A DNA stretch of 64,000 nt, taken from positions 1,243 through 65,242 of the forward strand of contig CAMHOY010000014.1 in NCBI GenBank assembly GCA_946186915.1, in the 5' to 3' direction. Shown here one piece after another: positions 35,475-45,091 of the stretch. The first letter of the stretch is position 1. Each line of letters begins with the position of its first letter. Under the pieces are notes generated by a model. The model did no database searches. It saw nothing but the letters and a program-made list of their open reading frames with translations, and was not told the DNA's origin. The position numbers were made by a program, and so were the translations under genes. This stretch comes from an uncultured Bacteroidales bacterium. GTDB lineage: Bacteria; Bacteroidota; Bacteroidia; Bacteroidales; Paludibacteraceae.

Positions 35475-35573
35475 CCACACCGAAACTTACCACGCCGAAG
35501 GCGTAACAAAAAATCGTGCCCTCGTGGCTAAGAAAAAATCGTGCCCTTGTGGCTAAGAATTAGAAATTAGAAA

Positions 35574-38500
35574 TTGAAGCGTAGCTTCCATTACATATTA
35601 TTCGCCATCACGGTAGCGCTGTCGGTCGTTGCCGGCATAATGATGTTCCATGTGAATGTCAATGCCGACATGACGAAATACCTGCCGGATAACTCGCAGA
35701 TGAAGCGGGGATTGGAGATCGTTACTTCCGAGTTCGGTTCTTCCGCCCAGATGTCCGGCGCGGATGTCCATGTGATGTTCGAAGGTGTTCGCCCAAAGGA
35801 GATTCCGGGAATACGGACGCTTCTGGAGGCTTATCCGGATGTGCAGGGCGTGACCTATCGCTATTCGTCCGACAGTACGCACACGGTCTTTGATCTCGAT
35901 GTGCCGAAGTCGGTGGACCAGAAGGAGTTAGGCAAACAGATCAGCACCCGTTTTGGAGGAAACTGCGTAGTGGAGACCAGCCAGGACGGTGCGACACCGC
36001 CGATGTCGGTGATGATCTTTGCCGCCGTGCTGATCATGGTGGTGCTCTTCGTGATGGCGCAGAGTTGGTTTGAACCGATCGTCATTCTGGCAACGGCTCT
36101 GCTGGCAATCGTGCTGAATATGGGTACAAATGCCTTGCTGCCTTCGGTATCTATCACGACGAACTTCATCGGTTCGATCCTGCAGGCTGTCCTCTCGCTC
36201 GATTATTGTATCGTGCTGCTGAACCGTTATCGTCAGGAGCAGGATGAGCATACCGACCGCCGTACAGCTGTCATTGCAGCCAACAGGGCCGTTCGTAAGG
36301 CAGCACCGTCCATCCTCTCGTCGGCCCTCACAACCGTCGTAGGACTGCTGATGCTCTGTTTCATGCGATTGAAGATAGGTGCGGACATGGGTATTGTACT
36401 GGCTAAGGGTGTGGTCTGCTCGCTGATATGTACCTTTACGGCTATGCCGTCACTGATGCTCCTCTTCCGCCGGACGATCAACGCGACCGCGAAGAAAGCA
36501 TATGTTCCTCCGACGGACGGGTTGGCGAGGTTTGTGGCACGGCATAAACTGCCGATGGCAGTGGGTGCCATCCTGCTATTCCTCGTCTCATGGTTCTTCG
36601 CCGGCCGCACAACGATCTTCTTCTCCGCAGAGGCTGAGTCGCAGATAGAGAAAATCTTCCCTGCGCCGAATCCGGTCGTACTCGTGTATGATACGCAGGA
36701 TGAGGACTCGGTGTACGGCCTGGTGGACAGTCTGATGGCGCAGCCCGGTATCCAGTCGGTCATCAGTTATCCGACGTTGATGAGCCAACCGCTCACGCCG
36801 CAGGAGATGACGAGCCATGTGCGGAGCCTGATGATCAATTTCAAGGATATGATGCCGGAAGGAACGAATGTCCCCCCGGAGGCACTCAATGTGCTGACGC
36901 CCGAGATGGTTCAGATCGTCTATTACATGCGCACCAAAGACTCGACGGAGACGCAATATACCTTCCCGGATATAGCCCGCTTCCTGCATACCCATGTGGC
37001 ATCCAATCCGCTTTTCTCGGCGTATCTGGATGATGAGATGAAGTCGCAGATAGCACTCCTGCAGTCCATGCTCGATGTCCCGCAAGCGAAAGAAACCTCT
37101 CCCCAGCCCTCCCCAGAAGGGAAGGGTGTGGCAAAGGAGTCTCCCAAAGATTCTCTTCCCCTCAGGGAGGAGGTAGAGGTAGGCTCCCTTCCCCGCGAGA
37201 CCATCGCACCCCTAACCCCTAATCCTCTAACCTCTAATCCCTTAACTCCCGACACACTCGAGATCCCGCAGATAGAGATAGACCGCATAGCCGTCGTACC
37301 GTTCATCGAGCGTCTGAATGCAACGCAGACCTCCGCTATTACGGTGGAGATGCGCAAACTGACGGACACCATGGCGATACGTCTGCCTATGTCGGTCAAC
37401 GAGATGTCTATCTTTATCGGTTCTACGCAGATACAGACGCGTCTGGTATATGGCTATGCCCCCGGACATGTGAAGAAGATGAGCCCGTTGCAGTACGTGC
37501 ATCTGCTGGTCGATGACCTGTTCAAACGCCCCGGCTTGGCAGGAATGATCTCGGAAGAGCAGCGTACGCAGTTAGGTCAGCGGGCGCACTTGATGGATCT
37601 GGCGGATGAGAATGCATCGTTGACGCCTTCCGACCTGAATATTCTGCTTCGTGCGTTCGGTATCGATGGTTTCTCGGATGAGGAACTGATGGCGATTGCT
37701 TATCCGCCGAAGAAAGAAGAACCGGTGATTCCTGTTAGTTCACCGGAGGAGATCGTCAACTCGCTGGCGGTCATCCAGTCGGCGCTGCATAGTACCGACA
37801 CCGCTCGCGCTATCGATGCAGAGACATATAACCGCTCGAGGAACATTGCGAATGAGACCAAGAAACATCATGGTCCTTCCCGCGCGGACCAGCAGGCGGA
37901 ACTGTTTACCGAACTGGTCTTCGGCGGCAAGTCCTATACAGCTGATGAGATGGCCGTCAGACTGGCGCGTCTGATGAAATTGTCGGATGTCAAGTCCGAA
38001 CCCGTCACACCGGCACAGATGTCGCTGTTGTACGATTATTACGGTTCTACCATCGGTCGTTGTGACACGCTTCGTATGGGTTTCGGACCGTTGCTGACCT
38101 ATCTGTGCGACACGTTGGTATACGACCCGCGACTGGCGGAGATATTGCCGGATTCGATACAACTGAAGGCGAAGGATATCCATGCGCAGATAACCACCGG
38201 ATTAGGCCAGTTGCGCAAGGAGAACTTCTCGCTGTTAGTCGTCCTGTCGTCCTTGCCGCCTGAGTCTCCCGAGACATACGAATTCGTGGATACGCTTACC
38301 GCACTCGCAGATGCCCGCATGCCGCACGAACACTATTATGTAGGTGAATCGGTGATGTACGCGGAGATGAGAGACGGGTTTGACCATGAGATGGAGGTCG
38401 TCACATGGCTGACTATCCTTTCTATCTTCCTTATCGTCGCTCTCACGTTCCGTTCGGTCATCGTGCCGACAATTCTGGTGCTGACGGTCATGACTGCCGT

Positions 38501-40657: not shown

Positions 40658-40705
40658 CCAAAGGTTATAAGATATTAGCAGTTAGTAATTAGCCATTAGC
40701 CTACC

Positions 40706-41065
40706 ATGAGAGATTTTCATAAAATAGATGTGTGGAAACGCAGTCATCAGTTGACTGTAGCAATATATAAGATAACGGAAACTTTCCCTAAGGATGAAAT
40801 ATTCGGTTTGACATCCCAAATTCGTAGAGCGATATCGTCAGTCCCTACTAATATCGCAGAAGGATGTGGGCGGAATAGTGATGCAGAATTATTTAATTTT
40901 CTTAATATCGCATCTGGCTCGGCTGCGGAAGTAGAATATCAAATAGTATTATCAAAGGAACTTGGCTATATTGCTGAACCTGTGGCAACTGAGTTGGCAA
41001 ATGAGATTGCCGAAATTAGAAAAATGCTCGGCTCATATATGAGAAAACTAAAAGCTAACAACTAA
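40706..41065 (+). CDS. four-helix-bundle protein (23S rRNA intervening-sequence protein family)
   Basis: 119 aa with family-typical blocks (W.....L...IY..T..FPK.E.FGL.SQ.RRA..S...NIAEG). Confidence 0.8.
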   Translation: MRDFHKIDVWKRSHQLTVAIYKITETFPKDEIFGLTSQIRRAISSVPTNIAEGCGRNSDAELFNFLNIASGSAAEVEYQIVLSKELGYIAEPVATELANEIAEIRKMLGSYMRKLKANN

Positions 41066-41097
41066 AAGCTAACAACTAATAGCTAAATTTTTAAGCC

Positions 41098-42678: not shown

Positions 42679-42790
42679 ATTATAGAATCTGCGCAGCGTG
42701 ATTTTGATTTCCTCTCCCCTCCCGGGGAGGAGGTCGAAGGTACAACAAAAATTGCAAATATGCAAGTTTTCGAGCGAAAAATATAGTATT

Positions 42791-43303
42791 AAATCAAAAA
42801 CGCGGCGGTACGACCTTTCGGTCTAATGTTTATCGTCTATTAGTCGCTCGTGAGCAAGCTCCCAGCGCCTAATACCCGCTAATCATTTTGTCCGGCTTGA
42901 TAGCCGTCCTACCGCCTTACAAAAATACGCTTCGCTCACAAAAATGTCCAAAAATTGCTTCGCAATGCGGGTGTAACAATCCCTACGTGCCGAATGGATT
43001 TTTGAAAGTGAAACGCAGTGCAACGCTTTTTTGTGAGTCATGGAATGACGTGTTTTTCGTAAGCAGCCGTCCAAAACACTATAAAATTTTATTTATGTTT
43101 ATGGCTGGCACGCAGAATAGTTTAGTATGTAGCAGCTTGCGCTGCAGCGGATTAGACTATTATGAGGCGCTGGGAGCTCGCTCACAAGCGTGCATAAGAG
43201 GCAGATACGCTCAAGGCCGCGTCGGCCGGGATAATGAACTATTCTAAGTGACAGTGTTTATATAGGTTTATTTTCCTCTTTTGACGGCTGCGTGTTTTTG
43301 ATT
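42791..43303. repeat. nested-palindrome element, copy A (513 bp)
   Basis: The termini are AATCAAAAACGCG.../...CGTGTTTTTGATT. Internal arm pairs include GTGAGCAAGCTCCCAGCGCC with GGCGCTGGGAGCTCGCTCAC, and CTCACAAAAA with TTTTTTGTGAG. Confidence 0.75.
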
Positions 43304-43363
43304 ACATATAATTTCTATTTTCTCTCGCTCAAAAAATATTTTTACTATAATTTTCAAGATTTA

Positions 43364-43395
43364 TTTGCATAATTCGATAGAAAAGTGTATCTTTG
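43364..43395 (+). promoter_or_regulatory. promoter of rubrerythrin
   Basis: TTTG at 43364-43367, 20 bp, then TATCTTTG at 43388-43395. Confidence 0.6.
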
Positions 43396-43430
43396 CAGCG
43401 AAAATTATTAACCCTTAAATTTACAAGATT

Positions 43431-43973
43431 ATGAAAGATTTAAAAGGAACAAAGACCGAGAAAAACCTCATGGAGGCTTTCGCCGGAGAGTCAATGGCGC
43501 GTAACAAATACACCTTCTTTGCTTCGAAGGCGAAGAAAGACGGATACGTGCAGATCAGCAAGATTTTTGAAGAGACTGCTGCTAACGAGAAAGAGCATGC
43601 AGAGCTCTGGTATAAATATCTCAATGGAGGCAAGATCAGCGGTACGACGGATAACTTGGCGGATGCAGCTGCCGGTGAGAATGCCGAGTGGACCGACATG
43701 TATGCCCGTATGGCGAAAGAGGCGGAGGAAGAAGGATTTACGGAGATCGCCGCTAAGTTCGCGATGGTAGCTGCAATCGAGAAGCACCATGAAGAGCGCT
43801 ATCGCAAACTGCTGAAAAATATCGAGGACAAGGTGGTCTTCTCCCGCGAAGGGGATTGTATCTGGCAGTGCTCCAACTGCGGTCATATCGTAGTCGGCAA
43901 AGCCGCTCCGGAAGAGTGCCCTGTCTGCCATCACGCCCAGGCCTATTTCCAACTCTTAGCGGAAAACTATTAA
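43431..43973 (+). CDS. rbr: rubrerythrin
   Basis: Di-iron ExxH helices ([19 protein letters not shown]) plus a C-terminal rubredoxin CxxC...CPVC. Confidence 0.9.
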
Positions 43974-44101
43974 CCGTTCACCCGTTCATCCGTTAACCCG
44001 TTCAACCGTTAACCCGTTCATCCGTTAACCCGTTAACCCGTTCATCCGTTCATCCGTTAACCCGTTCATCCATTAACCCGTTAACCCGTTAACCCGTTCA
44101 A
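43974..44101. repeat. 16 tandem copies of an 8-bp unit CCGTTMAN
   Basis: Two main variants, CCGTTAAC and CCGTTCAT, are interleaved. The array fills the rbr/kinase intergenic space exactly, from the rbr stop to 13 nt before the next ATG. Confidence 0.95.
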
Positions 44102-44114
44102 CTTTCAACATCAT

Positions 44115-45008
44115 ATGACTCCGAAACTAATTGATCTCGCCGAATACGAGCGAGTAGGCGAGGGCGCGAATGGCGCCAGTTATAATCATCGCCAGGATCC
44201 TAACATCATGCTCAAACTCTATTTCCGTAACTATGAAGCTGCGGAACTGGAGTTGGAACTGGCGCGTAAAGTGTATAACGCAGGTATCCCGACGCCCGAA
44301 CCGGGTGACCTCGTGACGGACGGCAAACAGGTCGGTATCCGTTTCCGCCGTCTGGTGGATAAGAAGTCCTTCTCCCGCGCTTGCGGAGATAATCCCGAGA
44401 AGACCGAACTCTACGGACAGCAGTTCGCTCAGATGTGTCTCGCGCTGCATAACACCCATGTGGATACGACCCTTTTTGAGAACGTCAAGGATCGTCTGTA
44501 TGCCATGCTGGAAGCCAACCCGGACTTCACGCCGGATCAGAAGCAGAAGATCCACGACTATATCGCTGCCGCACCGGATGCGGACACCGCTATCCACGGC
44601 GACCTCCAGTTCGGTAACGGTATCTTCATCCCTTCCGGTGAGAAATTCTTCATCGATCTGGGCGATTTCTGCTATGGTTTCCCGTTCTTCGATCTGGGCA
44701 TGGTCTATCTCTGCTGCTGCCTTAATGACGAGGCATGGACGATGGAGGTGAACCATATGTCCAATGCTACCGCGCGCCGTTTCTGGGATGCCTTTGCGGA
44801 TGCGTACTTCCATTCGCCGGAATGCCCGCTCATCCCTTATGGTTTCAAGGATAAGAACGGCAAACCGCTCTTCGGACCCGGAGCAGACCTGGAGCAAGTG
44901 GAAGATCTCGTGAAAATCTACGCCGGACTCAAGACCCTTATCGTCGAGCGCGACACCCATTGCCCCATGCCGCAGTTCCGAGCTATGCTCGAAGGAACGG
45001 TTTATTGA
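44115..45008 (+). CDS. APH/choline-kinase-like phosphotransferase
   Basis: Gly-rich loop GEGANGASY, catalytic loop IHGDLQFGN and DLGDF. Confidence 0.7.
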   Translation: MTPKLIDLAEYERVGEGANGASYNHRQDPNIMLKLYFRNYEAAELELELARKVYNAGIPTPEPGDLVTDGKQVGIRFRRLVDKKSFSRACGDNPEKTELYGQQFAQMCLALHNTHVDTTLFENVKDRLYAMLEANPDFTPDQKQKIHDYIAAAPDADTAIHGDLQFGNGIFIPSGEKFFIDLGDFCYGFPFFDLGMVYLCCCLNDEAWTMEVNHMSNATARRFWDAFADAYFHSPECPLIPYGFKDKNGKPLFGPGADLEQVEDLVKIYAGLKTLIVERDTHCPMPQFRAMLEGTVY

Positions 45009-45060: not shown

Positions 45061-45091
45061 CCCATATATTTGGATATATGGGATTTTTTTT
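45061..45091 (+). terminator. rho-independent terminator
   Basis: CCCATATAT-ttgg-ATATATGGG followed by ATTTTTTTT. Confidence 0.65.

Follow-up and report, generated by a model that had tools for sequence, protein, structure and literature searches.

A variable octamer array between a rubrerythrin gene and a kinase gene in an uncultured Bacteroidales bacterium

The rubrerythrin-kinase junction and its octamer array

In the window, that is, the whole 64,000-nt stretch of DNA that was analysed, the gap between a rubrerythrin gene and the gene of a kinase is occupied by a 128-bp array of sixteen contiguous, head-to-tail 8-nt units on the + strand. The features of this junction are as follows:

43388-43395, + strand: Bacteroidota-type -7 promoter box TATCTTTG, 36 nt before the rubrerythrin ATG (TANNTTTG scan)
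43431-43973, + strand: rubrerythrin gene, 180 aa, whose TAA abuts the first repeat unit (PF02915, PF21349, NCBIfam)
43974-44101, + strand: octamer array, sixteen 8-nt units (Tandem Repeats Finder, unit listing)
44102-44114, + strand: 13-nt non-repeat leader CTTTCAACATCAT, directly 5' of the kinase start codon
44115-45008, + strand: APH-family phosphotransferase (kinase), 297 aa (PF01636; resembles TIGR02172)

The rubrerythrin scores 260 bits against its NCBIfam equivalog model (cut-off 200), and the kinase scores 202 bits against TIGR02172, under the cut-off of 228. Downstream of the kinase lie a glucose-1-phosphate cytidylyltransferase (above its NCBIfam cut-off) and then a DegT-type aminotransferase, which form part of a CDP-sugar and polysaccharide block.

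Fifteen of the sixteen units fit CCGTTNNN, the family being CCGTT[C/A]A[C/T/A], and the five bases of the CCGTT core are invariant in these fifteen. The array consists of seven copies of CCGTTAAC, five of CCGTTCAT, two of CCGTTCAA, and one each of CCGTTCAC and CCATTAAC. Tandem Repeats Finder reports a period of 8 with 16.2 copies (score 153) as well as a period-16 superstructure (score 191). The repetition is far beyond chance, and the repeat is imperfect, its longest identity run at a repeat lag being 21 nt. The first base of the array directly follows the rubrerythrin TAA (43971-43973, a gap of 0 nt), and the array ends 13 nt short of the kinase ATG at 44115. The original prediction, made from the sequence of the window, had read sixteen units between exactly these edges, and the letters and coordinates agree with it. 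It had also described two alternating variants; two major variants are indeed present, but they do not strictly alternate, and five variants in all occur in irregular order. The array was rightly said not to be a CRISPR array, the units being contiguous and free of spacers, and the GTTAAC palindrome that had been pointed out is found within the AAC units. Genome-wide, this palindrome is neither over- nor under-represented, and a restriction-related role was rejected on the counts (284 observed vs 284.9 expected). With a period of 8 bp, neighbouring sites do not face the same side of the DNA helix. The sense strand is C-rich and G-poor, with stop codons in all six frames.

Signals of transcription and RNA structure were sought around the array. 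A scan with TANNTTTG found no further + strand -7 box between the box at 43388 and the kinase ATG, the next ones lying at 45065 and 45093, before the cytidylyltransferase. No terminator-like hairpin was found from the end of rubrerythrin up to the kinase. As RNA, the array with its flanks folds at -15.7 kcal/mol, no better than shuffled sequences (z-score 0.16), and the Rfam 15 covariance models gave no match up to E = 1 in window positions 43200-44500. With the fold, the hairpin scan and Rfam all negative, a hidden structured RNA or terminator at the array was rejected. The kinase has no alternative in-frame start, and the first in-frame stop is 33 nt upstream of its ATG. The kinase is probably co-transcribed with rubrerythrin, in which case the array would be an intercistronic spacer. 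Since the kinase has no promoter box of its own, its expression would depend on the DNA upstream.

Allelic variation among conspecific strains

Conspecific contigs from rumen metagenomes were found by exact-protein look-up with the cytidylyltransferase, and look-up with the kinase added one strain; neither the exact-protein look-up with rubrerythrin nor a metagenome scan for the array's 3' junction gave a match. All the conspecific contigs found have rubrerythrin, spacer and kinase in this same order. Nine flank-plus-gap haplotypes yield eight spacer alleles, which range from 57 to 141 nt:

141 nt: 16 octamers (the window and L021)
107 nt: 10 octamers and heptamers
101 nt: 10 octamers
100 nt: 10 octamers, in another order
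92 nt: 9 octamers and three CATTAAA
71 nt: 2 octamers and seven CACTAAC/CACTAAA
57 nt (two alleles): 2 octamers and four heptamers

In some strains, unrelated heptamers stand in place of most of the octamer array, and the position of the 13-nt leader (44102-44114) is taken by CTTTCAGCATCAT or by a heptamer array that reaches the kinase ATG. Five gaps without repeats on these contigs (13, 7, 130, 24 and 2 nt) are constant in length. The other repeat-bearing gap checked, before an MMPL gene (window 35475-35639), varies from 84 to 165 nt across strains, depending on the number of AATTAGA heptamers (one to three) and on how often a 25-nt repeat is present (zero to two copies). The original prediction had proposed a slippage-prone spacer and called for a check of its length between strains. 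The part of this proposal that concerns length polymorphism is borne out by the 2, 9, 10 or 16 octamers of the conspecific strains; the spacer is not invariant, and it varies only between haplotypes.

Where the 2,070-nt flanks of assemblies are the same or differ at a single base, the arrays are identical, one such haplotype having been recovered from six samples (majority alleles only). Distinct flank haplotypes, except the pair formed by the window and L021, differ pairwise by at least 27 bases, and each has its own spacer length in all but two cases; those two, both of 57 nt, differ in sequence. In a tree of the flanks, the alleles with 2, 9 and 10 octamers fall in one well-supported clade. 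Because the flank haplotypes bear distinct spacer alleles, the array changes faster than point substitution separates strains. There is no sign of rapid switching within a lineage in the consensus assemblies, where minority alleles would be hidden. Since identical flanks carry identical arrays, the array behaves like a variable-number tandem repeat (VNTR) and not like a fast on/off switch.

The gap between comM and rubrerythrin (window 42679-43430) also varies. It measures 34 nt in most strains, 525 nt in L193, and 752 nt in the window and L192; its extra DNA includes a palindromic element, and the rubrerythrin promoter box lies inside the same gap.

The conspecific contigs also contain cassettes built around PF05635, the four-helix-bundle family known from 23S rRNA intervening sequences. 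In L192 (12137-12720) and L197 (12137-12911), an inserted PF05635 gene separates the aminotransferase from the gene that follows it, at a site corresponding to window position ~47281, 3.2 kb downstream of the array; the window strain has no such insertion. On the 5' side of the cassette are four to five ATGAACGR units, the last of which supplies the PF05635 ATG, and on the 3' side are ~22 (L192) or ~45 (L197) units of the CCGTTAAC type. With ATGAACGR before the gene and CCGTTAAC-type units after it, the two sides are inverted arms drawn from the octamer family of the array itself. The nearest PF05635 gene to the array lies 2.9 kb upstream and has flanking heptamers of its own. This gene (~40706-41065, region 40658-41097) is preceded by ATTAGCN heptamers at 40674-40700 and followed by AACTAAAAGCTAAC repeats at 41044-41087, the two sets being about 71% complementary by eye; each strain has one of two alleles of it, with gap lengths of 440 or 510-581 nt.

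Related arrays in the genome, the genus and other phyla

The genome of the window (G000; 2.13 Mb, 37 contigs, 49% G+C, self-trained gene calls) was searched for arrays, defined as at least 3 copies of a 4-12-nt unit over at least 24 nt. There are ~551 such arrays, i.e. 25.9 per 100 kb or ~260 per Mb. Most are 7-mers and 8-mers: the counts are 278 for a period of 7 nt, 135 for 8 nt, 60 for 11 nt and 34 for 9 nt, and none of the 551 has a 5-nt unit. Their locations are as follows:

Gaps between co-directional genes: 259 of 551
Inside called genes: 218 of 551
Divergent gaps: 29 of 551
Convergent gaps: 28 of 551
Contig ends: 17 of 551

Of the 614 co-directional gaps that measure 30-250 nt, 118 consist of array over at least half their length. 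Within co-directional gaps, 164 of the 259 arrays begin no more than 10 nt from the upstream stop codon, and an array in these gaps lies at a median of 3 nt from the stop and 17 nt from the start that follows. Of the 195 heptamer and octamer arrays in such gaps, 65 have the stop codon itself as their first unit in register, as compared with 9 for the start codon, and 141 arrays are nearer the stop as against 53 nearer the start (p = 2e-10). The arrays of this genome are anchored on stop codons.

The genome holds 259 different canonical units, many of which recur, at up to 24 loci, and the strand bias of the arrays is 154:92. The CCGTT family occupies 21 loci, and the array of the window is the longest of them, in keeping with an earlier suggestion that it is an extreme case of the word-repeat leaders of this genome. 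Where CCGTT-family arrays lie in co-directional gaps, the C-rich strand is sense in 4 and antisense in 10. Among the 57 pairs of similar neighbouring arrays in the genome, 47 are direct and 10 inverted, and word families common to neighbouring gaps hint at some copying process between loci.

Several further observations concern arrays in other settings. Most of the heptamer and octamer arrays within called genes are internal (126 of 169 lie at least 60 nt from either gene end), and a super-period of 21 or 24 nt keeps the frame of gene-internal arrays open. One 2,631-nt frame contains 13 CCGTT-family units (G000 C3:143849-143964), and the MMPL transporter, which carries ACCCCTA repeats (window 37208-37246), ranges from 1,094 to 1,135 aa across strains. 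The ~60 arrays of 11-nt units, such as AGTGCGTGATA (G000 C3:1208-1263, C6:43912-43961 and C5:40775-40824), lie farther from genes, with a median of ~72-74 nt to both stop and start, and perhaps constitute an element type of their own, distinct from the 7-8-nt arrays. The gene mutS is trailed by an 11-unit CCGTTCAT/CCGTTAAT array that fills the gap to the next gene (G000 C22:19366-19453). Seventeen of the arrays stand at contig ends (e.g. the ends of C1, C4 and C16, both ends of C15 and C18, and the start of C33), so the repeats evidently break short-read assembly.

The density of arrays is likewise high in the relatives of this bacterium: five congeneric genomes (80 kb of each) have 19-25 arrays per 100 kb, as compared with 1.2-7.5 in five other families of the order (one genome each). 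High array density is a genus-level trait that coexists with intact mismatch repair. MutS and MutL are uninterrupted in the genome of the window as well as across the genus and are present in all or nearly all of the 41 genomes searched, and loss of mismatch repair was therefore rejected as the cause of the arrays and of their density. The insertion loops that MutS of Escherichia coli corrects measure about 4 nt at most, so slippage loops of 7-8 nt would escape repair anyway. Loss of the flap nuclease of Pol I is not supported either, since the 5'-3' exonuclease and polymerase domains lie in one 781-aa frame. According to a statement of Mrazek and colleagues quoted in PMC4692102, the excess of heptamers has been proposed to reflect how long a stretch of DNA the polymerase holds in its active site.

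At the level of the junction, rubrerythrin and the kinase are adjacent in none of 36 other species of the genus; there, a terminator hairpin or a different gene usually comes after rubrerythrin. In species G003, a related TGGTTCAT/CGGTTCAT octamer array comes after the same rubrerythrin stop codon and is followed by comM. The kinase follows a RelA/SpoT-like gene in five other species, and that gene lies elsewhere in the genome of the window (G000 C2:133423-134475), followed by an HD-domain gene; the kinase was thus relocated behind rubrerythrin in the species of the window. Where this genome has arrays, the orthologous gaps of other species contain different units or no array, which, taken with the non-adjacency, indicates that the junction is species-specific and that arrays turn over quickly.

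Elsewhere, CCGTT[A/C]A[C/T] arrays were found in no fewer than 118 stretches, which represent many phyla, and genomes of Longimicrobium have dozens of such loci. In several of the Longimicrobium genomes, dozens of loci bear pure (CCGTTCAC)n arrays, which reach 15 units and are often accompanied by CCTCACAC arrays (L062-L141, e.g. L083, L116 and L133), and pure (CCGTTCAC)n arrays are also present in genomes of Betaproteobacteria, Verrucomicrobiota, Leptospiraceae and candidate phyla. The recurrence of CCGTTCAC across phyla can, with low certainty, be ascribed to independent origins. In a control of 400 Bacteroidota genomes, the NN of CCNNTCAC arrays is never GT but one of five other pairs, and CCNNTCAC in reverse is equally frequent; on the strength of this control, the CCGTT word is not regarded as universally special, and that view of CCGTTCAC was rejected.

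Interpretation and relation to known repeats

The array has all four features of a long-unit simple sequence repeat, namely contiguous units, occurrence at many loci, copy-number variation and a position close to a stop codon. In the summary that PMC4692102 gives of the survey by Mrazek, Guo and Shah (2007), long simple sequence repeats have units of 5-11 nt and are dominated by heptamers. The GGGAATC arrays of Xanthomonas and the GGGGA(C/T)T arrays of Nostoc belong to the same class (Rehm et al. 2015, PMC4692102). Like these, the present arrays consist of head-to-tail 7-8-nt units with lineage-specific words at many loci; they are mostly intergenic between co-oriented genes, nearer the end of the upstream gene than the next start, and they vary extensively in length and sequence among close relatives. 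They differ in that their words are not G-rich, so that no quadruplex is possible, in that octamers are nearly half as common as heptamers, and in that 259 canonical units coexist at ~260 arrays per Mb. TAACTGA direct repeats have been described in marine Beggiatoaceae, cyanobacteria and five Bacteroidetes including Paludibacter propionicigenes (MacGregor 2015, PMC4679880). As with these and the cyanobacterial STRR heptamers, the words fill the space upstream of start codons in genomes where Shine-Dalgarno sites are rarely used, strains differ by unit-sized indels, contigs break in arrays, and some arrays lie in frame inside genes. In Beggiatoaceae, however, one word is dominant and has a fixed 'forward' orientation beside start codons (PMC4679880), whereas the arrays described here are stop-anchored and made of many words with a strand bias of 154:92, and no candidate binding protein or regulon is evident for them. 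None of the papers searched contains the octamer itself. Taken as a whole, the array is an ordinary member, though of unusual length, of a class of repeats that has been known since the STRR sequences of cyanobacteria.

Phase-variable loci were also compared, such as the tetranucleotide repeats in lic1A of Haemophilus influenzae and the heptanucleotide repeats in the hmw promoters (PMC2651432, PMC12721329). The array shares with such contingency loci a tandem repeat beside a block of surface-polysaccharide-related genes, with a unit number that varies between strains. It differs from them in lying outside the reading frame and not between promoter elements, in being imperfect, and in being identical in all assemblies with identical flanks. 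A placement suited to phase variation was thus not found, as the array is intercistronic, its gap has no -7 box and the kinase has no alternative in-frame start. The 23S rRNA intervening-sequence cassettes resemble the locus insofar as the octamer family of the array forms inverted arms in two conspecific strains; the studied array, unlike those cassettes, has neither an inverted partner nor an enclosed PF05635 gene beside it, and it was not classed as a PF05635 hairpin cassette.

In our judgement, with a probability of roughly 70%, the array is a long-unit simple sequence repeat, i.e. a bacterial VNTR, that makes up the whole intercistronic spacer of a probable rubrerythrin-kinase transcript. 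Units would be gained and lost by slipped-strand mispairing or by unequal exchange between 8-nt units, the 8-nt loops presumably being too long for correction by MutS/MutL, and new units would then mutate into the CAT, AAC, CAC and CAA variants. Duplications that start at or just after the stop codon would persist, because they leave both proteins intact, and those that interfere with the ~13-20 nt immediately 5' of the start codon would be removed. Translation in Bacteroidota starts without a Shine-Dalgarno site, from unstructured leaders, so that a G-poor, unstructured spacer of 57-141 nt with stops in every frame would be tolerated. The array may be close to neutral, and its only likely effect would be on the distance between the cistrons and hence on the degree of translational uncoupling. 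Plain slippage leaves three things unaccounted for: the preference for 7- and 8-nt units with no 5-mers, the recurrence of the word at 21 loci in both orientations, and the sharing of words between neighbouring gaps.

The unit number might alternatively be adaptive, setting the stop-start distance and so grading the translation of the kinase (through coupling or re-initiation) or the stability of the mRNA, with selection keeping the lengths. Each distinct haplotype has its own allele beside repeat-free gaps of invariant length, the last ~13 nt before the kinase ATG are free of octamers, and the kinase has no promoter box of its own, all of which would suit such a role; nevertheless, we regard it as unlikely. 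About one fifth of the operon gaps of 30-250 nt bear arrays, before genes of all kinds, which a mutational process fits better than hundreds of separate tuning devices, and the alleles follow the flank haplotypes as neutral markers would. It is harder still to sustain the proposal that the units are sites for a protein recognising CCGTT, as the original prediction had put it, or its complement, in DNA or in mRNA, that would regulate the kinase or shape the nucleoid. The number of sites changes eight-fold between strains (2-16), partly through exchange for unrelated heptamers; a site every 8 bp does not keep step with the helical turn; and hundreds of unrelated words behave alike, in 259 unit families. 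The family also occurs in both orientations to transcription (4 sense and 10 antisense in co-directional gaps), which argues against an RNA motif. Against this stand the CCGTT core in fifteen of the sixteen units, the 21 loci of the family in this genome and the similar arrays in several phyla. The 400-genome control, in which GT was never used and the reversed pattern was as frequent, also speaks against binding sites. We consider binding sites extremely unlikely, and with the same range of 2-16 sites and the off-phase period, an operator- or iteron-type array was set aside.

A further possibility, to which we give little credence, is that the array is an arm, docking site or recombination site of a mobile cassette, or the joint of the rearrangement that placed the kinase behind rubrerythrin. 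The two PF05635 genes of the genome are both flanked by arrays, but there are only two of them to 551 arrays. Similarly, two CCGTT arrays of other phyla adjoin PF05635-like genes, and 3 of the 118 CCGTT-array loci in other genomes hold such a gene, while 115 have none nearby. The same word family does form inverted arms around the PF05635 gene in L192 and L197, and the rubrerythrin-kinase junction is confined to this species, the kinase standing behind the RelA/SpoT-like gene in five others; yet no inverted partner of the array was found within 8 kb in the window, and inverted pairs make up only 10 of the 57 pairs of similar neighbouring arrays. A broader and similarly improbable idea is that stop-anchored octamer and heptamer arrays are the working ends of a gene-shuffling system, in which arrays would be docking or recombination sites for genes that move between operon gaps, and paired arrays would form RNA hairpins that excise the message of an inserted gene from the transcript of the operon. 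It is suggested by the shared words of the inverted arms, by the word families shared between neighbours and by the position of the array on a species-specific junction.

The reading as a VNTR-type spacer places the array in a repeat class already surveyed in Xanthomonas, Nostoc, Beggiatoaceae and some Bacteroidetes. What is added here is a clean series of natural alleles at a single operon junction (2, 9, 10 and 16 units together with a varying heptamer array), a genome-wide measure of stop-codon anchoring, and a genus-level high density of arrays despite intact mismatch repair. The arrays break short-read assemblies, and they could serve as VNTR-type strain markers for this uncultured rumen lineage. 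Finally, the allelic series offers a ready test of how spacer length affects translation of the downstream cistron where initiation is not led by a Shine-Dalgarno site.
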